From: Candidatus Omnitrophota bacterium
GTDB taxonomy: Bacteria > Omnitrophota > Gorgyraeia > Gygaellales > Profunditerraquicolaceae
DNA length: 64,000 nt
NCBI GenBank assembly: GCA_023227985.1
Contig: JALOCB010000007.1
Span: forward strand, 399 to 64,398
Direction of reading: 5' to 3'
This document shows positions 1,268-36,790 of the stretch, in pieces. Each line of letters starts with the position of its first letter. Within the stretch, counting starts at the first letter, position 1. The notes under the pieces are model-generated. The model made no database searches. It saw only the letters and a program-made list of their open reading frames with translations, and was not told where the DNA came from. A program made the translations under genes and the position numbers.

Positions 1268-1295
1268 TTGACATAATATTGTGAGGATTTATAAT
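1268..1295 (+). promoter_or_regulatory. Candidate sigma70-like promoter of the chemotaxis operon
   Basis: TTGACA (1268-1273), a 16-nt spacer, then TATAAT (1290-1295). A ~110-nt leader with CCGGTAT direct repeats follows before cheC at 1406. Confidence 0.5.
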
Positions 1296-1405
1296 TTTTA
1301 AGAGAGATACTGCGTGTTGACCGCGGCGCCGGTATACTGGTATGTCCGGTATCGTGCCGGCAGGTTTTATTGATAGAGGCGTTAAATAATATCATAAAAT
1401 AAATT

Positions 1406-2014
1406 ATGGCCGATATGAATTTCACCGATATCCAGAAAGACGCATTGCAGGAGATCGGAAATATCTGCGCCGGCAACGCAGCTACCGCCCTGTCGCAGTT
1501 ATTGGATAGGCCTATAAATATAGTTGTTCCCCGTATCCTTTTCCTGCCTATAGAAGATGTCCCCAAGGCGGTCGGCGGAAGCGAGAAGCTTGTCGTTGGG
1601 CTTATGCTGCGGGTTTTCGGCGACTTGCCCAGCAATATAGTCTTCATATTCTCTCAAAGGGACGCGATGATCCTGGCGTCTCTTGTTACCGGAAAACCTG
1701 TATCTGAATCAACCGTTATATCCGAGATGGAGCGCTCGGCCCTGAAAGAGATCGGGGTTATCCTGGCTAACGCTTATTTAGGGGCCCTGGGGAGCTTTGT
1801 CGGCCTCGGCCTTGTGCCTACCGTTCCGGAGTTGATAATGGATATGGCCGGGGCTATCCTGGATTACCTGCTGATTGAATTAAGCTGTAAGTCGGAATTC
1901 GCTTTATTGGTGGAATCCGAACTGCATGAACCCGTAGCCTCGGTGACCGGGCATTTTTTCCTTATTCCCGATCCGGCGGGCATGGAGCTTATTACCAGGG
2001 CCATAGGCAAATAG
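1406..2014 (+). CDS. cheC: CheC-family chemotaxis phosphatase (paralog 1)
   Basis: DALQEIGNICAGNAATALSQLL matches the CheC signature (E-IGN-x-G-x-AATAL). It is 202 aa with a second repeat in the C-terminal half. Confidence 0.75.
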   Translation: MADMNFTDIQKDALQEIGNICAGNAATALSQLLDRPINIVVPRILFLPIEDVPKAVGGSEKLVVGLMLRVFGDLPSNIVFIFSQRDAMILASLVTGKPVSESTVISEMERSALKEIGVILANAYLGALGSFVGLGLVPTVPELIMDMAGAILDYLLIELSCKSEFALLVESELHEPVASVTGHFFLIPDPAGMELITRAIGK

Positions 2015-2064
2015 CCGCGTTTATTTTATAAAACAAGCAATATTAAACAAGAAAGATCCAACTT

Positions 2065-4056
2065 ATGCAAGATAGTTACCGGGAACTATTCCTTTCCGAA
2101 TCGCAGGAGTACTTGAGTAATATCAGCAGTTGCCTGGTGAAGCTTGAAGAAAAACCTTCTGATCCGTCTTCGATAAACGAGATCTTCCGCTGCGTGCATA
2201 CCCTTAAAGGAATGTCCGCCACCATGGGCTATGAAAAACTGACCACATTGTCCCATGAGATGGAAGACCTTCTTGACGAGCTGCGCAATAAGAAACAGGA
2301 GCTTAGTCCCGAGATTATGGACACATTATTTGCGGCGGTGGACATTCTGGAACAATTATTCACAGAGATAAAGGGAAAGAAGGAATCGGTCCTGGATATA
2401 TCCGAGATCGGCAATACCTTGAAAAGCTTTCTTGCGGAGAATCAGCGAAATAAACCCAGAGGAAAAGGAAAGGGCGCGGTAGTTGCCCCTGTCAAGGATT
2501 TTACCGAATTCGAGCTTAAAAAGCTCAAAGACTCGAAATCAAAGAAATTAAACGTGTTTAATGTGCGGATAAACCTGAGCAAGGATTGCGCGCTGAAGGA
2601 AGCCCGGGCATTCCTGGTGATCACTAACCTGAAGCGGTTCGGGGAGATAATTTCGACCCAGCCTTCGATAGAAGACCTTAAGGCGGGTAATTTCGAGTAT
2701 TCGTTTACGGCAATGTTTTCCAGCAAAGAAGATTCCGGGATAGTGCGCCAGGAATTGATGAATATATCGGAAGTAGACGAGGTGAGTATCTCCTCCCAGG
2801 ACCTCTCCGGAACTGGTCCTTCCGATGGTAAACAGGGGCAGCCGTCAGCGGCAAATCATCCGGCTAACGCCCCGGCGGCCGGGCCTGTTTATGTAAAGAA
2901 GATACAGAGCATGCGCATTCCGGTGGAACGGTTGGATAAGATCATGAACCTGATGGGTGAGCTGTCGATCGCCAAAATCCGGCTGGTGCAAATAGTCCAG
3001 ACATATAAGCTGGAGCCTCTTGAAGAAGTCGGTTTTTCCCTTGACCGCCTGATCTCCGCCTTGCAGGATGAAGTCATGCAGACCAGGCTTTTGCCTGTAG
3101 CGTATATACTTGACGCTTTCCCGCGGGTAGTCAGGGATGTGGCAAAGAAGCAAGGCAAGGATGTGGAACTGGAGATATTGGGCGGCGAGATAGAGCTGGA
3201 TCGTATGGTCCTGGATGAGATGAGCGATCCCCTTTTGCACTTGGTAAGAAATGCCGTGGACCATGGGCTGGAGACATCGGAAGAGAGAAAGAAGAATAAC
3301 AAAGACCCCCGCGGTAAGCTTACTATACAGGTGAGCCGCCAAAGGGGACAGATCTATATAGAAGTTATTGATGACGGTCAAGGGATTGATTTTGAGGCTG
3401 TCTGCAAAATCGCTATAAGTAAAGGTTTGGTCACCCCGGAAGAAACAGCGGAAATGGATGAAAAAAAGGTCCTGGACCTGATAACCATGCCGGGATTTTC
3501 CACCGCCAAGGCCATAACCGATATCTCCGGCCGCGGGGTAGGGTTGGATGTGGTAAAATCCAAGATTGAAGCTTTAGGCGGCAGGGTGGATTTTGAGACG
3601 AAAAAAGGCGAAGGCAGCCGGTTTATCCTGACATTACCTCTGACATTGGCTATCATCAAAGCGATGTTAGTCAAGGTGGAAGAAGAAATATTCGCCATCC
3701 CCCTGATGAATATCCGGGAAACTATAAAGATAAGGACTGACGAGCTTAGATATCTGCAGAACTTTGAAGTGGTCAAGGTAAGGGAAGAGGTTATCCCGGT
3801 GATCAGGCTGAATAAAGAACTGGGAATAAGCAGCGCGAAGGTCGCAAGTGAAGAATCCGACGACCGGGTATCCCTGGTTATCGTGGAATATGGAAAGAAG
3901 GCTTTGGGTTTGGTGGTTTCGCAGGTTTTGGGAGAGCAGGATATAGCTGTTAAACCGCTTGGCTCTTTAGTCAAGCGCACCAAAGGTATTGCCGGCGCGA
4001 CTATACTGGGCGACGGGAGGGTGGCTTTGATCCTGGATATAATGAGCCTGCGTTAA
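2065..4056 (+). CDS. cheA: Chemotaxis histidine kinase CheA
   Basis: An Hpt domain (FRCVHTLKGMSATMGY), dimerization and HATPase domains (DDGQGID, GRGVGLDVVK), and a C-terminal CheW-like domain. 663 aa. Confidence 0.9.
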   Translation: MQDSYRELFLSESQEYLSNISSCLVKLEEKPSDPSSINEIFRCVHTLKGMSATMGYEKLTTLSHEMEDLLDELRNKKQELSPEIMDTLFAAVDILEQLFTEIKGKKESVLDISEIGNTLKSFLAENQRNKPRGKGKGAVVAPVKDFTEFELKKLKDSKSKKLNVFNVRINLSKDCALKEARAFLVITNLKRFGEIISTQPSIEDLKAGNFEYSFTAMFSSKEDSGIVRQELMNISEVDEVSISSQDLSGTGPSDGKQGQPSAANHPANAPAAGPVYVKKIQSMRIPVERLDKIMNLMGELSIAKIRLVQIVQTYKLEPLEEVGFSLDRLISALQDEVMQTRLLPVAYILDAFPRVVRDVAKKQGKDVELEILGGEIELDRMVLDEMSDPLLHLVRNAVDHGLETSEERKKNNKDPRGKLTIQVSRQRGQIYIEVIDDGQGIDFEAVCKIAISKGLVTPEETAEMDEKKVLDLITMPGFSTAKAITDISGRGVGLDVVKSKIEALGGRVDFETKKGEGSRFILTLPLTLAIIKAMLVKVEEEIFAIPLMNIRETIKIRTDELRYLQNFEVVKVREEVIPVIRLNKELGISSAKVASEESDDRVSLVIVEYGKKALGLVVSQVLGEQDIAVKPLGSLVKRTKGIAGATILGDGRVALILDIMSLR

Positions 4057-24880: not shown

Positions 24881-24886
24881 CCCCCT

Positions 24887-24995
24887 GTAGACGTTGTACG
24901 TAATTAATTGTCCCACTTAGAGTTACAAATAAATGTTTTTAAAAAACATTTATTTGTAACTGCCTATTCCGTAGCAGGTTAGCTACAACGTCTAC
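24887..24995. repeat. MITE-like palindromic element with 12-bp terminal inverted repeats and an internal 39-bp perfect palindrome
   Basis: GTAGACGTTGTA...TACAACGTCTAC flanks GTTACAAATAAATGTTTTTAAAAAACATTTATTTGTAAC (24922-24960). A degenerate second copy is at 36679-36790. Confidence 0.55.
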
Positions 24996-25008
24996 CGGTT
25001 TTATTTTA

Positions 25009-25037
25009 CTTGACATGATTTTGGAATAGTGTTATTA
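25009..25037 (+). promoter_or_regulatory. Candidate sigma70-like promoter for nikR
   Basis: TTGACA with a 17-nt spacer to TATTAT. The RBS GGAGAGGGG precedes the ATG at 25070. Confidence 0.4.
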
Positions 25038-25069
25038 TTTTAATAATCGTAATATTAAGGAGAGGGGTA

Positions 25070-25486: not shown

Positions 25487-25554
25487 TTATGGGGATTATT
25501 TTTTTGTCCGTTGGTAACACGATTATTTAAATCGTGCTAAAAAAGGAGGTGCGC

Positions 25555-26907
25555 GTGTTACGGGGTAGAATGGCCATAAATATTCTTTTGGGGATTTGTG
25601 TTGTCTTCTGTTTCCGGCAGGGCGTCGGTTTTGCCGCGGATACTGTCGCGAATGAGGATGTGCTCGAGCAGATACGGTATCTTAAGAAAACCATCCGGGA
25701 ACAGCAGCAAAAGATCGAAGCGCTTGAGCATCGGGTATCCCGTCAGGAAAACACCGGCCGGGAGATCGGAACTATTGTGCCGGTTTCGGAGATCGACCGG
25801 CGTATTGACGAACGCCTCTCCCAGAAAGCCCCGGCGTATCAATTAATGGAAGGGTTATCCATGAGCGTGGGAGCTACCACTATTGTGCAGTCAGTGCACA
25901 ACGCCAATGGGGCAACCCAGCTTTCCGGCAAAGAGGATGTTACCGATAGCTCTGTTTCCACCGATATCACGCTCAATAAGAAATTCGAGGATTACGGTGA
26001 AGGGTTCGTGTATGTTACCGCGGGTCAGGGCAAAGGCGTTGAAGATGAGTTACAGTTGTACAGTAATGTGAACTATGACGCTGACGATGACCAGAATGTG
26101 CGTTTGTCAGAGGCGTGGTATGAACATTATTTCAAGTCTGTTTCCGGGGCGCTCGCTTTCGGTAAACTTGATCCCACAAAATATATCGATACTAACAGTT
26201 ACGCTAATGACGAGACAACGCAGTTCCTGGGCAGGATGTTCCGGAATTCCGCGGTCGTTGAATTTCCCTCTAACGCTGGCGGCGCGCATTTCGGAGCCTC
26301 GCCTAGCGAGTTTTACAGTATTAATCTTGTGGCAGTGGACGCGGATGCGGATTGGGAGGATGCGTTCGACGGGATGTTCCTCGCCGGCCAGTTTAATCTC
26401 AAACCTAAACTGTTCAACCGGGAAGGCAACTACCGTTTCTTTGTCTGGAATAACGGGGCCAACCACAGTAATTGGTCGGATCCGGCAAAGGATAAGGAGA
26501 ACGGTTATGGATACGGCTTAAGCTTTGACCAGGAATTGACCGATAACCTGGGTATTTTTGCCCGTTACGGCTGGCAGGACCCCAAGGTATATATGAACGG
26601 CAGCGATTTCTCGCTTGAACAATCATGGAGCATCGGACCGCAGATCAAAGGGGTTTTATGGGGCAGGCCGGATGATGTTGTTGGTATAGGCTTTGGCCAG
26701 ATCATACCTTCCAATAAGTACAAGCAGGCGAATAACCTTCAGGCTAAGACTGAAAGTCATATGGAATGCTATTATAATTTCAAGATTAATGAGCATTTAA
26801 GCCTCAGCCCGGACCTGCAGGTTATCTGGCAGCCTTACGGCAAGGACAGCGCTAACGGCGACGGGACTATTGTTGTGGGCGGCTTGCGGGGACAGTTGGA
26901 CTTTTAA
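25555..26907 (+). CDS. Outer-membrane beta-barrel porin-like protein (OprB/carbohydrate-porin-like) with a signal peptide and an N-terminal coiled coil
   Basis: GTG start after AGGAGG. Signal peptide AINILLGICVVFCFRQGVGFA. A coiled-coil segment (EQIRYLKKTIREQQQKIEALEHRV). The rest is beta-rich and ends in ...GQLDF, an aromatic terminus. Confidence 0.45.
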   Translation: MLRGRMAINILLGICVVFCFRQGVGFAADTVANEDVLEQIRYLKKTIREQQQKIEALEHRVSRQENTGREIGTIVPVSEIDRRIDERLSQKAPAYQLMEGLSMSVGATTIVQSVHNANGATQLSGKEDVTDSSVSTDITLNKKFEDYGEGFVYVTAGQGKGVEDELQLYSNVNYDADDDQNVRLSEAWYEHYFKSVSGALAFGKLDPTKYIDTNSYANDETTQFLGRMFRNSAVVEFPSNAGGAHFGASPSEFYSINLVAVDADADWEDAFDGMFLAGQFNLKPKLFNREGNYRFFVWNNGANHSNWSDPAKDKENGYGYGLSFDQELTDNLGIFARYGWQDPKVYMNGSDFSLEQSWSIGPQIKGVLWGRPDDVVGIGFGQIIPSNKYKQANNLQAKTESHMECYYNFKINEHLSLSPDLQVIWQPYGKDSANGDGTIVVGGLRGQLDF

Positions 26908-26946
26908 CGAAAAACTAGTATAATATTTAACAATGGAGGAATTGCG

Positions 26947-28005
26947 ATGCATATGGCAGACGCGTTGATATCCCCGGTTGTGGGCGGGGCTATGTGGGCT
27001 GTTACCGCGGGGCTTATCGCGTACAGCGCTAAAAAGGTCAGGGAGGAAGCGGATGACCGTAAAGTTCCGCTTATGGGCGTGCTGGGCGCTTTTATATTCG
27101 CCGCGCAGATGATCAATTTCAGCATTCCGGCTACAGGATCAAGCGGCCATTTGGGCGGAGGGATGATCCTGGCTATCATCTTAGGGCCTTACGCGGCTTT
27201 TTTGGTCATGGCCTCAGTGCTTATCGTCCAGGCGCTTTTTTTTGCCGACGGAGGCCTGCTCGCGCTGGGCTGCAATATTTTTAATCTGGGATTCTTTCCT
27301 GCTTTTATCGCCTACCCTTTGATCTATCGCAAGATCGCCGGAGATGGTTCTTCATCAAAGCGCATTATGACGGCTGCGATTATTGCCGGGGTGATCGGGT
27401 TGCAATTGGGCGCGTTTAGTGTTGTCCTGGAAACGATATTTTCAGGCATATCCGAACTGCCGTTCAGCACATTCGTATTGTTGATGCAGCCGATCCATTT
27501 GGCTATAGGTGTTGTGGAAGGGCTGGTTACCGCCGCAGTGGTAACCTTTGTCTGGAAGGCCCGGCCGGAGATATTGAACGCTGCCGCGCATTCTACGGCG
27601 ATAGAGAAAGTAGATACCAGAAAGGTCATTACGGGGTTATTAGTGGCCGCTATTGTAGTTGGAGGGGCATTAAGCTGGTTCGCTTCAGCCAATCCTGACG
27701 GTCTGGAATGGGCGATGTTCAAGACTTCGGGCAAAGAAGAACTAGAGAGCGTTGATCCTGTCCACGTTTCTGCTTCCAGCATCCAGGAGAAAACCGCGTT
27801 TCTGCCGGACTATGGTTTTAAGAAAAACGAATCTGCTCAAGTATTTACTGATGTCAACGCTTTAGAAGCAGCGGTAAAACCATCCTGGCCGGCGGTTGAT
27901 CCGGGGACCTCTGTATCAGGGCTGGCCGGGGGAGCTTTGACCATAGCCTTGGTATTTTTGATCGGACTATTGGTTAAACGCCGTACTCCGAAAAGCGCGG
28001 GTTAA
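26947..28005 (+). CDS. ECF-type Ni/Co transporter substrate-capture component CbiM/NikM with a fused N-like C-terminal extension (NikMN)
   Basis: Starts MHMADAL (a CbiM-type N-terminus with His2). The CbiM core is followed by an extra ~120 aa containing a TM segment. 352 aa. Confidence 0.7.
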   Translation: MHMADALISPVVGGAMWAVTAGLIAYSAKKVREEADDRKVPLMGVLGAFIFAAQMINFSIPATGSSGHLGGGMILAIILGPYAAFLVMASVLIVQALFFADGGLLALGCNIFNLGFFPAFIAYPLIYRKIAGDGSSSKRIMTAAIIAGVIGLQLGAFSVVLETIFSGISELPFSTFVLLMQPIHLAIGVVEGLVTAAVVTFVWKARPEILNAAAHSTAIEKVDTRKVITGLLVAAIVVGGALSWFASANPDGLEWAMFKTSGKEELESVDPVHVSASSIQEKTAFLPDYGFKKNESAQVFTDVNALEAAVKPSWPAVDPGTSVSGLAGGALTIALVFLIGLLVKRRTPKSAG

Positions 28006-28065
28006 CCCGATCATTTACATAAAGGGGCATTCAGCAGGCAGTGCCGGTAGCCGGTACTGCCTGCC

Positions 28066-28890
28066 TTGTCTATAAGAATGAATAAGATCAACGGTAATTT
28101 TCTGGATATAGGGTATATGGATACTTTGGCCTGCGCCGACAGCCCTGTGCACAGGCTGGATCCCCGGGCCAAATTAATAGCCACGTTTGTTTTTATCGTG
28201 ACTGTCGTGTCTTTTGACAGGTATGCCATATCCGGGTTGCTGCCGTTTTTTATCTTTCCCGTGGTAATGATCTCCGTTGCCGGGTTGCCGGCCAGGTATA
28301 TCCTTAGAAAAGTGCTTTTGATCTCGCCTTTCGCGATATTGATCGCGATATGTAATCCTTTTCTGGACCGGAGTATTCTTTTTCATGTAGGGGGGATCAA
28401 TATTTCCGGCGGCTGGGTTTCTTTTATCTCTATACTCCTGCGTTTCTTTTTAACGGTGACCGCGGCATTGGTATTGGTTGCATCCACCGGTTTTAACGCG
28501 GTCTGCCTGGCATTGTCCAAGCTGGGACTGCCTAAGCCTTTTGTTATGCAGTTATTATTTCTCTACCGATATATTTTTGTCCTGCTGGAAGAAACAGAAA
28601 GGCTGGTCCGGGCCAGGGCGCTGAGATCTTTTAGCGGCACCGCTATGAAGTTAACAACGTTCACTTCCCTGATCAGCCATCTTTTACTGCGCACGCTGGA
28701 CCGCGCCCAACGTATATATCTGGCCATGTGTTGCCGCGGTTTTGACGGGAATGTCCGGCTTATCCGGTCAATGAAGAAGGGTCGCAGCGAAATAATATTC
28801 GTGGCAGGCTGGTCGGTATTGTTCATTATTTTAAGGTATTGGAATATTCCTTTACATGTCGGCGCGTTGATCACCCGGAGGAGTCTATGA
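28066..28890 (+). CDS. ECF transporter transmembrane (T) component CbiQ/NikQ
   Basis: A polytopic CbiQ-family protein. 274 aa. Its stop overlaps the next ATG. Confidence 0.7.
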   Translation: MSIRMNKINGNFLDIGYMDTLACADSPVHRLDPRAKLIATFVFIVTVVSFDRYAISGLLPFFIFPVVMISVAGLPARYILRKVLLISPFAILIAICNPFLDRSILFHVGGINISGGWVSFISILLRFFLTVTAALVLVASTGFNAVCLALSKLGLPKPFVMQLLFLYRYIFVLLEETERLVRARALRSFSGTAMKLTTFTSLISHLLLRTLDRAQRIYLAMCCRGFDGNVRLIRSMKKGRSEIIFVAGWSVLFIILRYWNIPLHVGALITRRSL

Positions 28891-29636
28891 GCCACCATAT
28901 CGTCGAAGCTATGGACCTGCATTATACCTATCCTGACAAAACCGCGGCGTTGGCCGGCGTATCCTTCCGGATCTCCCATGGGGAATCAGTGGCCCTGGTA
29001 GGCGAGAACGGCGCAGGCAAATCCACGCTGTTATTGCATTTGAACGGATATCTGCGCGCCACGTCCGGCAAGGTGCGTATCGGGGATTGTTTGTTGACTC
29101 CCCAGAACCTGTCGATCGTGCGCCGCAGCGTAGGGATGGTATTCCAAAATCCCGACGACCAATTGTTCATGCCTACGGTATTTGATGATGTGGCTTTCGG
29201 CCCGCTTAATCTTGGCTTGCCCAAAGAGGAGGTGGAGCGCAAAGTCGTTGTGGCCCTGGAAACCGTGGGCATGGCGCATCTGGCAAAGCGTCCGCCGTAT
29301 AAGCTCTCCCAGGGGGAAAAGCGCTCCGTGGCTATAGCCACGGTCCTGGCCATGTCGCCGGATATCCTGGTTATGGATGAACCTACTTCCAGCCTTGACC
29401 CGCGCTCGCGCAGGCGGCTGATCGAACTGCTCAAGACCTTCCGCCATACCAAGATAATCGCCACTCACGACCTGGATATGGCAATGGACCTTTGTGAGAG
29501 GGCTATTGTTCTTCACCGGGGAAAGGTCACTGCCGACGGTCCGACGGCAGAACTTTTCCAGGATGAAGGCCTTCTTTCCCGCAGCTGCCTGGAGAAACCG
29601 CTGCGCATGCAGCATTGTGCAAAGACCGGGTCTTGA
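28887..29636 (+). CDS. ECF transporter ATPase CbiO/NikO
   Basis: Walker A (GENGAGKST), the ABC signature (LSQGEKRSVAIA) and Walker B (LVMDEPTSSLD). The start at MSHHIVEAMDL is inferred. Confidence 0.85.
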   Translation: MSHHIVEAMDLHYTYPDKTAALAGVSFRISHGESVALVGENGAGKSTLLLHLNGYLRATSGKVRIGDCLLTPQNLSIVRRSVGMVFQNPDDQLFMPTVFDDVAFGPLNLGLPKEEVERKVVVALETVGMAHLAKRPPYKLSQGEKRSVAIATVLAMSPDILVMDEPTSSLDPRSRRRLIELLKTFRHTKIIATHDLDMAMDLCERAIVLHRGKVTADGPTAELFQDEGLLSRSCLEKPLRMQHCAKTGS

Positions 29637-29639
29637 AAC
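29622..29639. repeat. 18-nt palindromic element AAGACCGGGTCTTGAAAC, copy spanning the nikO stop codon
   Basis: An identical or near-identical element recurs at 40946-40960 and 40987-41004. Confidence 0.5.
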
Positions 29640-29712
29640 CGGTTGGGGCAGCGATATTTATTGAATAAATATGCCGGGATGATACAATTTAAAATAACCG
29701 GGATGACCTTGT

Positions 29713-30522
29713 ATGCAGGCAGCGGATAAACTAAAGAAGCTTCGGTGTATCTTAAAAGAAATGCGTTCGGTGCTGGTCGCTTTTTCCGGTGGAGCGGACA
29801 GCGCTTTCTTGCTTGCGGTAGCGGAAAGTGTCCTTAAGGGGGATGTGCTGGCGGTAACCGGGGTTTCCCCGTCGATATCCCTTAAGGAGATCGATGAGGC
29901 GTCCCAATTGGCTAAAATACTGAAAGTCAGGCACAGGAGGATAAAATATAGCCTGTCCAAAGAATTCTGGCGAAATTCCGCCAAACGGTGCTATTATTGT
30001 AAGAAGGCTTTATTTATAAGATTAAAAAATATTGCCGGAAGGCAAAAGCTGTCTTGTATTGCCGATGCCACAAATACCGATGACCGCCTTGATTATAGGC
30101 CAGGCGCAGCGGCTCTGAAGGAATTGGGAATAAGGAGCCCGCTTCAAGAAGCGGGATTGAGCAAGAAAGAGATCCGGCTGCTTTCCCGTAAGATCGGCCT
30201 TAAGTCCTGGGATAAGCAGGCGTCAGCCTGTCTTGCTTCCCGGATCCCTTATAATGAGCGCATAACTCCGGAAAAGCTTTTGCGGGTCGGCAAAGCCGAG
30301 GAATTCATCCGCGGGCTGGGTTTTGATCAGGTTAGGGTGCGTTCGCACGCAGGACTGGCTAGGGTGGAATTGGGCCGGGGAGATATTCCCAAGGCTGTTA
30401 AGGTGAAGGAAAAGATATTACGTAAATTGCGGAGCCTGGGTTTTGTTTATGTGACTGTTGATCTGGAAGGTTACCGCGTCGGTTCGCTGAATGAGGTATT
30501 GGGATGGAAAAAAATAAAATAA
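29713..30522 (+). CDS. larE: LarE-like ATP-dependent sulfur transferase (PP-loop ATP pyrophosphatase) of nickel-pincer cofactor biosynthesis
   Basis: A PP-loop (SGGADS). 269 aa. A Cys in ASACLASRIPYNE. Adjacent to larB and the Ni transporter. Confidence 0.65.
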   Translation: MQAADKLKKLRCILKEMRSVLVAFSGGADSAFLLAVAESVLKGDVLAVTGVSPSISLKEIDEASQLAKILKVRHRRIKYSLSKEFWRNSAKRCYYCKKALFIRLKNIAGRQKLSCIADATNTDDRLDYRPGAAALKELGIRSPLQEAGLSKKEIRLLSRKIGLKSWDKQASACLASRIPYNERITPEKLLRVGKAEEFIRGLGFDQVRVRSHAGLARVELGRGDIPKAVKVKEKILRKLRSLGFVYVTVDLEGYRVGSLNEVLGWKKIK

Positions 30523-31262
30523 CCGCGCTGCTTAAGCGTGTAAGAGAAAAAAAGATAACGATCAACGATGCTTTCATGAAATTAAGGCATCTGCCTTATG
30601 AGGACCTGGGTTTTGCCAAGGTCGATCATCATCGTTTGATGCGCACTGGTTTCCCCGAGGTGATCTTTTGCCAGGGGAAAACCCCGGAACAGATACTGGC
30701 GATATTCAAGGCGCTTTCCCGGAAGAATAAAAAAGTGCTTTTGACCCGTGTTGACGGGAAAATGTTCAAGAAGATCAAAAGCATAAACCGCAGGGTATTT
30801 TATAACGCGCAAGCTCGGACTGTTTGTCTTGACGGGGCAAAGCCTGTCCGGGAAGGATTGGTTTCAGTGGTCTGCGCAGGCACAGCCGATATCACGGCGG
30901 CTGAAGAGGCGGCGGTCACGGCTGAGCTTTTTGGCAGCCGCGTGGAAAGGGTCTATGATGTGGGTGTGGCAGGCCTGCACCGTCTTTTAGGCTCGTTTAA
31001 AAAAATCTCAGCAAGCCGGTGCATCATTGTTTTAGCCGGAATGGACGGTGTTTTGCCCTCGGTAATAGGCGGTCTTGCTTCCTGTCCGGTGGTCGCTGTG
31101 CCGACATCAGTGGGTTACGGCGCTAATTTTAAAGGTATCGCGCCTCTTTTGACGATGCTCAACAGCTGCGCCCCGGGAGTGTCCGTGGTTAATATCGATA
31201 ACGGCTTTGGCGCCGGATACATCGCTTCTCTTATCAACAGGGGCGCGGCATGCGTGACCTAA
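30504..31262 (+). CDS. larB: LarB-like nickel-pincer nucleotide biosynthesis carboxylase/hydrolase (PurE-like fold)
   Basis: EDLGFAKVDHHRLMRTGFPEVIFCQGKT, VVCAGTADITAAEEA, AGMDGVLPSVIGGL. 252 aa. Confidence 0.7.
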   Translation: MEKNKITALLKRVREKKITINDAFMKLRHLPYEDLGFAKVDHHRLMRTGFPEVIFCQGKTPEQILAIFKALSRKNKKVLLTRVDGKMFKKIKSINRRVFYNAQARTVCLDGAKPVREGLVSVVCAGTADITAAEEAAVTAELFGSRVERVYDVGVAGLHRLLGSFKKISASRCIIVLAGMDGVLPSVIGGLASCPVVAVPTSVGYGANFKGIAPLLTMLNSCAPGVSVVNIDNGFGAGYIASLINRGAACVT

Positions 31263-36493: not shown

Positions 36494-36676
36494 ATGGCCG
36501 AATATATCTGCCCGCATTGCCGTAAACCGGTCTATGATGATGAAGCGCTGTTGTGCCTTTATTGCGGGGAGAGCCTTAATCGCGGCAAGTTTTTTTTGAA
36601 ACCCAAGCCCCTTCTGATGGTAATCGTAATAATTATTCTAATCAGCTTTCTTGCCTTTATGCTGCAGACGTTGTAG
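36494..36676 (+). CDS. Small zinc-ribbon protein with a C-terminal TM helix
   Basis: CPHCRKPV...CLYCGE followed by a hydrophobic tail. 60 aa. Confidence 0.4.
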   Translation: MAEYICPHCRKPVYDDEALLCLYCGESLNRGKFFLKPKPLLMVIVIIILISFLAFMLQTL

Positions 36677-36678
36677 CT

Positions 36679-36790
36679 AACATCCTCCGGGGCATATAGA
36701 TACAAATAAATGTTTTATGGGCTATTTCTGTATTCATTTGTAATCCTTAGATATGCAATTAGATGCGTACAGCGTCTACGGTTCGTCTAC
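36679..36790. repeat. Degenerate second copy of the MITE-like element seen at 24887-24995
   Basis: It shares GCAGACGTTGTAGC, TACAAATAAATGTTTT, CATTTGTAA and GCGTACAGCGTCTAC with the first copy. Confidence 0.45.

Follow-up and report, generated by a model that had tools for sequence, protein, structure and literature searches.

Why should a perfect palindrome of some 40 bp lie just in front of a gene for the nickel regulator NikR? The question is raised by a 64 000-nt stretch of DNA (contig JALOCB010000007.1; hereafter, the window) from a metagenome-assembled genome (MAG) of Candidatus Omnitrophota, in which the palindrome forms the centre of an element, here termed W1, between ccsB and nikR; a second copy, W2, is found further downstream, beside cstA. 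A preliminary description of the window had taken W1 for an element resembling a miniature inverted-repeat transposable element (MITE), and offered a recently active miniature mobile element, a bidirectional terminator or insulator, and an operator as the options. We consider it very probable that W1 is a non-autonomous, REPIN-like ('double-foot' REP-like; REP, repetitive extragenic palindrome) miniature repeat, made up of the two ends of a transposase unit in the same genome, the enzyme being a Y1/HUH transposase of the REP-associated tyrosine transposase (RAYT) or TIRYT type.

W1 matches the joined ends of a transposase unit

The parent unit (L050/L051, positions 2849–3721) spans 873 bp and contains a single gene (L050 3001–3708), for a 235-residue Y1/HUH transposase, P0066. 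W1 corresponds to the left ∼54 nt of this unit joined to its right ∼55 nt, with 80% identity and with the gene missing. The left end of the unit is GTAGACGTTGTACGCATC-(17 nt)-ATTACAAATAAATGTTTTA and the right end is AAAAACATTTATTTGTAAA-(17 nt)-GTTAGCTACAACGTCTAC, where ATTACAAATAAATGTTTTA and AAAAACATTTATTTGTAAA are the left and right arms, respectively; at the right junction, ...ACTGGAAGCAGTTAG|CTACAACGTCTAC in the unit is aligned with ...CCGTAGCAGGTTAGCTACAACGTCTAC in W1. In this alignment, the W1 palindrome is the place where the two subterminal inverted repeats of the unit meet. Identity to the joined ends of the L050 unit is 77% for the ortholog of W1 in lineage L145 and 71% for W2; when W1, W2 and the L145 ortholog are compared with the units of other lineages, it is 59–67%.

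The host is a Candidatus Omnitrophota MAG, and the proteins of the window are present in JGI sample 3300037067, which holds both the window contig and the L050 contig, as well as in three NCBI submissions. In these three MAG submissions, the accessions of the window CcsB, NikR and CstA proteins and of P0066 neighbour each other (MCK95945xx/MCK9595217, MDD50796xx/MDD5079174 and MFA53727xx/MFA5372787). As this adjacency is seen in all three, the genome of the window encodes the L050 transposase unit; in each of three assemblies, P0066 occurred at one locus.

The same type of end accompanies Y1 genes in other lineages: all five of those examined (L020, L049, L050, L053 and L057) are bounded or flanked by inverted ends of the GTAGACG type. 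In L049, L050–52 and L053–55, the Y1 gene lies between inverted (GT)AGACGTTGTA-type ends, one of them 125–220 nt ahead of the start codon and the other immediately after the stop codon; the L057 unit carries GTAGACGCTTTACCTAAC and GTTAATTAAAGCGTCTAC at its two ends; and in L020, an open reading frame (ORF) with a match to Pfam Y1_Tnp (IS200-like) is located between two copies of the element. The L020 stretch (1276–3010; unclassified MAG CAYWRA01) is itself composite: a complete short element directly precedes the Y1 gene's own left end (1393–1439), the 3′ end of the Y1 ORF runs into another short element, and, beside a third copy, a 34-residue fragment (2907–3008) duplicates the C-terminus of the transposase (82% identity), which indicates nested or serial insertions around the gene. 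L020 is the one locus with a Y1 gene among the ∼130 obtained from DNA-pattern scans, and thus, among these loci, the short copies outnumber the transposase gene.

No target-site duplication was found at W1, W2, the parent unit or the other copies inspected. The preliminary description had held that a lack of such duplications, together with a lack of further copies and of a related insertion sequence, would refute a mobile element; however, Y1 transposases are not expected to leave target-site duplications, so this argument is inapplicable. At W1, the L050 unit and the copies in L024, GTAG has the dinucleotide CT immediately before it, which matches the CT cleavage site of characterized enzymes. 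As a general cleavage signal for the family, CT beside GTAG was rejected, because it holds only in the lineage of the window and in L024.

Architecture of the two copies

The coordinates of the features of W1 and W2 are collected in Table 1. The 12-bp terminal inverted repeats of W1 had been described correctly, in position and in letters; imperfectly, the outer inverted repeat reaches 20 nt (24884–24903 and 24979–24998, 85%). The central palindrome, first reported as a perfect 39-bp repeat at 24922–24960, is present but slightly longer: its arms (24921–24940 and 24942–24961) are 20 nt each, 100% complementary and 1 nt apart. They are AT-rich, with only 2 G–C pairs in 20. The expectation that such a palindrome is rarely accidental is borne out by the fold energy of the 121-nt W1 region, which is −43.8 kcal/mol, compared with −17.9 ± 2.8 kcal/mol in 200 shuffles, none of which was as good (z = −9.3). 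The terminal 12-mer by itself is not significant: with up to two mismatches allowed, there are four matches where 1.55 are expected, and 11 of 100 shuffles reach this number. The non-randomness of W1, therefore, rests on the palindrome and on the homologous copies. In a literature search, the terminal 12-mer strings were matched by nothing but primers and unrelated sequences, and a scan of the whole window against Rfam at gathering thresholds gave no match, so no known RNA family applies.

Table 1. Positions in the window of the two element copies and their parts
Feature	Position	Strand	Description
Copy 1 (W1)	24887..24995	+	Complete non-autonomous element of 109 bp; the two halves of the Y1-transposase unit, left and right, joined without the gene
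W1 left terminal 12-mer, GTAGACGTTGTA	24887..24898	+	GTAG-tagged; CT just before
W1 left subterminal box, CGTAAT (family consensus YNYAAC), and 17-nt spacer	24899..24921	+	Spacer unpaired with the right spacer
W1 central 20+1+20 palindrome	24921..24961	.	Meeting point of the parent unit's two subterminal inverted repeats (arms)
W1 right 17-nt spacer and box, GTTAGC	24961..24983	+	In the parent unit, encodes the last residues of the transposase and the stop codon
W1 right terminal 12-mer, TACAACGTCTAC	24984..24995	+	Exact reverse complement of GTAGACGTTGTA
Copy 2 (W2)	36664..36779	-	Length 116 bp; opposite orientation to W1; degenerate in one arm
Element-terminus relic, CGTCTAC (reverse complement GTAGACG), 7 nt	36784..36790	-	4 nt outside W2; holds the cstA stop codon

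The second copy, which had been placed at 36679–36790 and called partly decayed, is real, although its true span is that given in Table 1, on the minus strand relative to W1 and with the relic adjoining it. Moreover, it is not simply decayed: one of its arms is degenerate, but the copy is also inverted, relative both to W1 and to its ortholog in a sister strain (see below). Alignment of W1 (109 nt) with W2 (116 nt) gives 84 matching positions in 123 columns. W2 retains GCCCA, a few nucleotides of the 3′ coding end of the transposase gene, and its deletion breakpoint, therefore, differs from that of W1. Stop codons on both sides are drawn from these sequences: the 60-residue zinc-ribbon ORF takes its TAG (36674–36676) from W2, and cstA ends on a TAG inside the relic (the reverse complement of CTA at 36787–36789). 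A hidden Markov model (HMM) of the family half-site finds exactly four half-sites in the window, namely, the two doublets W1 (two matches, E = 6 × 10−9 each) and W2; beyond these, neither the HMM nor blastn-short detected a further copy or half-copy in the 64 kb.

A dispersed family with a fixed register

Scanning of 185 579 species genomes with the pattern GTAGACGNTGTA-N65–95-TACANCGTCT gave 44 loci, of which about half are chance matches in G+C-rich coding DNA, and the rest share the layout of the element. The family members come from Omnitrophota (L010, L024 and L027), Auribacterota (L013), a MAG labelled Deltaproteobacteria (L016, L023 and L040) and an unclassified MAG with at least eight copies (L005, L014, L020, L025, L034 and L041), in addition to L012. 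A metagenome scan yielded many more family elements, and a scan of viral contigs none of the type found in the window. The terminal 12-mers recur across family members from several phyla, in some lineages with one or two mismatches, and they are also found at the ends of the Y1 units. Same-orientation arrays are found in L014, L020 and L024, with three copies in each of the latter two; in the arrays of some relatives, the copies are 0.9–2.2 kb apart.

The consensus derived from 66 half-sites (33 non-redundant elements) is GTAGACGTTGTA-YNYAAC-N17-RTTRY and then the remainder of the arm. Conservation extends to positions outside the search pattern, T23, A31, T38 (66/66) and A47 (65/66); since these positions were not selected, the 12-6-17-19 register of the half-site (GTAG-tagged terminus, YNYAAC box, unpaired spacer and arm of ∼19 nt) is fixed. 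The arms co-vary, with position 45 being pairable in 31 of the 33 elements, compared with 14.4 expected from random cross-element pairing, whereas the 17-nt spacers pair across the arms at chance level only. On this comparative basis, a single strand is predicted to fold into a terminal stem, a conserved 17 × 17 internal loop, to which two weak side hairpins are the alternative, and a central hairpin. The register-based half-site analysis was used in place of a consensus RNA fold on a MAFFT alignment, which gave the terminal stem only, as the centre was misaligned.

A possible sister class of ∼100-nt inverted-repeat elements was also encountered, in which the ends consist of 2–5 tandem 9-mers (GTAGACGNT). 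Its loci are L003 4805–4927, L015 2878–2991, L031, L068, L069, L098, L102, L105, L107, L108, L110, L111, L114, L115, L136, L138 and L154 (a viral contig from IMG/VR), the hosts being Planctomycetota, Latescibacterota, other MAGs and the one IMG/VR contig. No Y1 gene was found within the fetched flanks of this class.

The transposase P0066

The homologs of the L020 Y1 ORF form a family of about 1400 proteins, roughly 220–240 residues in length (most have 228); those with a named source are mostly from Omnitrophota, with one from Auribacterota. Residues 12–126 are assigned to Pfam Y1_Tnp, and the C-terminal ∼90 residues are without assignment. The top NCBIfam model is the RAYT (NF047646), with 54–67 bits, as against ∼19 bits for IS200. 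Across 31 homologs, His62, Trp101 and Tyr122 (in CGRYIERNPV) are invariant, and His64 (HYH) and Gln102 (LWQGRF) are present in at least 90%; the catalytic motifs, as judged from these residues, are intact. A sequence search of the PDB with P0066 gave only marginal matches to ISDra2 (E ∼0.1). For the AlphaFold model (predicted local distance difference test score 86; predicted template modelling score 0.82), the best PDB match found by Foldseek is 4ER8_A, the Escherichia coli REP-associated transposase with REP (E = 3.6 × 10−8; template modelling score 0.70; 161 columns), followed by the TnpA proteins of IS608 and ISDra2. By length and motifs (NHYH, WQ, YIERNP and an SS tail), the family would belong to class 2 of TnpA-Y1 (Y---NP), with subclass 2.1 ('TIRYT') as the nearest, this being a motif comparison only, with the table in PMC6006769.

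History at the two insertion sites

At the ccsB–nikR site, the element is present in L145/L146, which belong to the cluster with at least 90% CcsB identity; its termini and arms are conserved, whereas its spacers have diverged. The two 17-nt spacers (24905–24921 and 24961–24977 in the window; 3316–3332 and 3371–3387 in L145) diverge far faster than the termini, the arms and the neighbouring promoter DNA, which suggests either that constraint acts on ends and arms only, or that the spacers are turned over by conversion. L150, with a CcsB that is 83% identical, carries a 148-nt version of the element at the same site (3299–3446), with ∼40 extra nt between the arms, which do not evidently resemble the L050 unit's interior. 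Finally, in L151, where CcsB is 67% identical and the order hemL-resB-ccsB-nikR-cbiM is the same, 16 nt separate the stop codon from the −35 box, and there is no half-site. This distribution suggests that W1 was inserted in an ancestor of the window, L145/L146 and L150 lineages and has been stable since, loss in L151 being less parsimonious. An element that occupies the orthologous site at these distances, and is missing only from the most distant of the relatives, can no longer be called recently active, as the preliminary description had proposed.

At the zinc-ribbon/cstA site, the sister strain (L147–149) carries the element in the opposite orientation (L147 3975–4085), and W2 is colinear with it only after reverse-complementing (window GATACAAATAAATGTTTTATGGGCTATTTCTGTAT versus GATACAAATAAATGTTTTACGGGTTATTTTCGATA, the L147 sequence reverse-complemented). 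The TAG that ends cstA is supplied in L147 by the terminal GTAGAC of the element and in the window by the relic, with the present element starting 4 nt further out. The inversion of W2 fits an excision that left a short terminal footprint and was followed by reinsertion; a template-switch inversion between the two inverted ends fits as well. In REPIN excisions reported by Bertels and Rainey (PMC3116915), ∼6 bp stay behind. The zinc-ribbon protein has 60 residues in the window and 57 in the sister strain.

Genomic context and alternative explanations

W1 is preceded by hemL, resB and ccsB. Between W1 and W2 lie nikR, genes for an OprB-like porin, the nikMN/Q/O transporter, LarE-like, LarB-like and cupin proteins, glgC, a response regulator gene, two unknowns, a DUF3108 gene and the zinc-ribbon ORF; downstream of W2 is cstA, which is convergent with the latter. 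Within this segment, nikR is followed, at positions 25534–31262, by genes for the OprB-family porin, a fused NikMN (CbiM and PDGLE), NikQ and NikO, and then for a PP-loop ATPase (weak QueC/ATP_bind_3 matches) and an AIR-carboxylase-like protein; the last two look like LarE and LarB, makers of the nickel-pincer cofactor, clustered with nickel uptake. We also considered W1 and W2 as the inverted ends of a composite transposon that moves the 11.7-kb nik/lar/glgC segment, and rejected this, because the intervening genes are ordinary chromosomal genes, the order of which is conserved in relatives, and each copy has its own history. Both copies are found downstream of genes, the ORFs on either side being co-directional or convergent, which fits published REP distributions (PMC3733652).

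Given this setting, a mainly regulatory role has to be weighed, with the element acting either as a NikR operator or as a bidirectional terminator or insulator (separating the heme/ccs operon from nikR, and the zinc-ribbon gene from cstA); we regard it as improbable. The palindrome does contain GTTAC-N29-GTAAC, resembling NikR half-sites, but a spacing of 29 nt is wrong for the published delta-proteobacterial NikR signal, GTGTTAC-N13/14-GTAACAC (PMC545781). The nikR promoter consists of a −35 box TTGACA (25010–25015), a 17-nt spacer and a −10 box TATTAT (25033–25038), with 11 of 12 sigma-70 matches and an extended −10 TG; as first described, W1, which ends at 24995, stops ∼14 bp short of the −35 box. 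Outside W1, and overlapping the −10 box, is a candidate NikR box, GTGTTAT-N13-GTAATAT (25029–25055). This box is conserved in four Omnitrophota lineages, whether the element is present or absent, and its best version, GTGTTAT-N13-GTAACAC, belongs to the element-less one, so that neither spacing nor position supports the operator option. For termination, it can be said that the element comes directly after stop codons, that a T-rich run starts 3 nt past the outer stem of W1, that GGTTTTATTTT comes after the folded element, that ends and arms are conserved between lineages while the spacers drift, and that REP-type repeats elsewhere are reported to influence termination and mRNA stability (PMC3733652). 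Nevertheless, our scan detected no canonical intrinsic terminator (a G+C-rich stem–loop plus a T-run) at W1 or W2, which agrees poorly with such a role, as do the AT-richness of the palindrome and the occurrence of the same element at unrelated loci and in other phyla. W1 may exert a weak, non-canonical effect on the ccsB transcript; any effect on the ending or stabilizing of the hemL-resB-ccsB transcript would, however, be incidental, and W1 is not part of nikR regulation.

Two further identities compete with that of a REPIN-like repeat. A classical MITE, that is, an internally deleted DDE-type insertion sequence moved by cut-and-paste via its terminal inverted repeats, would have the 12-bp inverted ends, the ∼110-bp length, the non-coding character and the several copies that are observed here. 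Yet, the sole coding units with the same ends carry a Y1/HUH transposase, in five of the five lineages examined, Pfam scans of the element-adjoining ORFs in L014, L020 and L024 revealed no DDE transposase, and target-site duplications are missing from every copy. The homology to the ends of a Y1 unit and the lack of target-site duplications together speak against a classical DDE-type MITE, an identity that we consider very unlikely; what stands of the earlier 'miniature mobile element' is a gene-less derivative of a transposase unit in the same genome, belonging to a dispersed, multi-copy family. Slighter still are the chances of an integron attC-like recombination site, to which the box consensus YNYAAC...RTTRNR (compare RYYYAAC...GTTRRRY) and the same-orientation arrays of L014, L020 and L024 had pointed. 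The invariant 12-nt termini and the unpaired 17-nt spacers are foreign to attC, no integrase was seen in the annotated arrays, and the genes between the window copies include some of a housekeeping type (the nik transporter and glgC). The attC idea was dropped in the face of the Pfam Y1 transposase between the L020 copies and of the L050 unit, whose two ends W1 matches end to end at 80% identity in the same genome.

Several observations weigh against W1 being a REPIN-like repeat served by P0066. Copy number may be low, in contrast to classical REPs (>100 copies): the 64 kb contain two copies, to which the parent unit is to be added, and exact-pattern matches are few in related large contigs (two in one of 1.87 Mb). 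W1 is old and vertically inherited and hence provides no evidence of current activity, and movement in this genome is deduced from sequence comparison. The half-site offers only a 4–6-bp YAAC/GTTR stem with a 17-nt loop, and the co-variation between positions 15 and 39 is weak and confounded by shared ancestry. With respect to the protein, the RAYT score of 54–67 bits lies below the curated cutoff of 80 bits, and P0066 has Gly at residue 102, where at least 90% of the 31 homologs have Gln. The W94/Q95 region of the E. coli enzyme contacts GTAG (PMC6006769); by analogy, Gly102 may impair P0066, with its activity altered or reduced.

Proposed mechanism and significance

By analogy with the biochemistry of IS200/IS605 and of TnpA-REP (PMC8266576, PMC6006769), P0066 would mobilize the REPIN-like repeats through a single-strand route. 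The transposase would recognize the folded single-stranded element, most likely on replication-exposed DNA, via its GTAG-tagged ends, with GTAG serving as a guide-like motif; the HUH motif and the catalytic tyrosine would then cut and rejoin single strands through a 5′-phosphotyrosine intermediate. Short elements would, in this manner, be moved or copied in trans, without target-site duplications, and one such event, in the common ancestor of several lineages, would have put the element behind the ccsB stop codon and ahead of the nikR promoter, where it has been retained since. CT cleavage and GTAG-dependent binding are known biochemically only for the enzymes of E. coli, Stenotrophomonas and Marinomonas (PMC8266576).

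More tentatively, and with the balance slightly against it, the elements and their cognate Y1 transposases could represent an undescribed, cross-phylum lineage that still stands midway between an IS200-like insertion sequence and a domesticated RAYT/REPIN pair. That this lineage is centred on Omnitrophota and Auribacterota, and reaches into Deltaproteobacteria-labelled and unclassified MAGs, is a possibility that we hold with the same reserve. Were it so, its hallmarks would be the nearly invariant, GTAG-tagged 12-nt terminus and the rigid 12-6-17-19 register; the transposase gene would still reside between the halves, so that the short elements match the joined ends without the gene; and the whole-element inversion of W2, with its 7-nt footprint, would record an excision and reinsertion since the two sister strains diverged.

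In practical terms, reading the 41-bp perfect palindrome before nikR as a scar-like junction of unit ends guards against its mis-annotation as a nickel operator or riboregulator. The finding would also add uncultivated candidate phyla, on which the RAYT literature has little to say, to the hosts of REPIN/RAYT-type 'genomic commensals'; our literature search found no paper that pairs Omnitrophota with the terms RAYT or REPIN. A short repeat that can be aligned end to end with its transposase-bearing parent bears on the origin of REPINs from IS200-like ancestors, and the conserved termini and fixed spacing provide precise substrates for DNA recognition tests of this transposase clade.

Comparison with known systems

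REPINs consist of inverted conserved ends and a less conserved hairpin spacer (PMC3116915). In common with REPINs and their RAYTs, for example those of Pseudomonas fluorescens SBW25 (PMC3116915), the element of the window is ∼100 nt long, with two conserved inverted ends and a less conserved middle containing a compensated hairpin; it is extragenic, it appears to outnumber a single Y1 gene that is flanked by cognate ends, and it persists vertically at orthologous sites over long periods. The 7-nt relic beside W2 likewise resembles the ∼6-bp excision remnant of that system. In contrast to such REPINs, the conserved ends are not themselves short palindromes (REP), there is a fixed 17 × 17-nt unpaired internal loop, copy number is apparently low, and the hosts belong to Omnitrophota, Auribacterota and other uncultivated MAG lineages; the protein, at ∼230 residues, is longer and scores under the NCBI RAYT cutoff. 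A classical REP (20–40 bp) carries 5′ GT[AG]G at the base of a short stem–loop of its own, whereas here GTAG is present without a convincing local hairpin.

'Double-foot' REPs (subclass 2.4) have GTAG...CTAC ends (PMC6006769), a form shared by the window element, although the associated proteins differ: subclass 2.4 is characterized by NH[IFV]H, YIxNNP and 194 residues, as opposed to NHYH, WQ, YIERNP, ∼230 residues and an SS tail in the present case. TIRtrons, in which RAYT-like genes are flanked by inverted repeats (PMC3733652; TIRYTs, subclass 2.1 or RAYT group 1), provide a further parallel, as the Y1 gene of our unit is bounded by terminal inverted repeats and its product is similar in length and in its HuH, W and Y motifs. 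In some genomes, TIRYT repeats form moderately abundant families organized as dimers (PMC3733652). Unlike the ends described here, which are GTAG-tagged, most TIRYT repeats have GGGGWSAS in common and no relation to GTAG repeats (PMC3733652), and no C-terminal helix-turn-helix Pfam domain was detected in P0066. With IS200/IS605, the system has in common the Y1/HUH fold, the lack of target-site duplications and miniature derivatives that keep both ends. The ends of IS200/IS605, however, are not inverted repeats and form separate subterminal hairpins, and their TnpA proteins, of ∼130–150 residues, have a Y---Q motif and are multi-copy; the NCBIfam IS200 score here is only ∼19 bits. Overall, we conclude that the arrangement of the transposase gene is that of a REPtron or TIRtron (Di Nocera et al. 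2013, PMC3733652), and that the element is an ordinary genomic parasite of the known REP/REPIN type, albeit with a divergent protein clade and candidate-phylum hosts.

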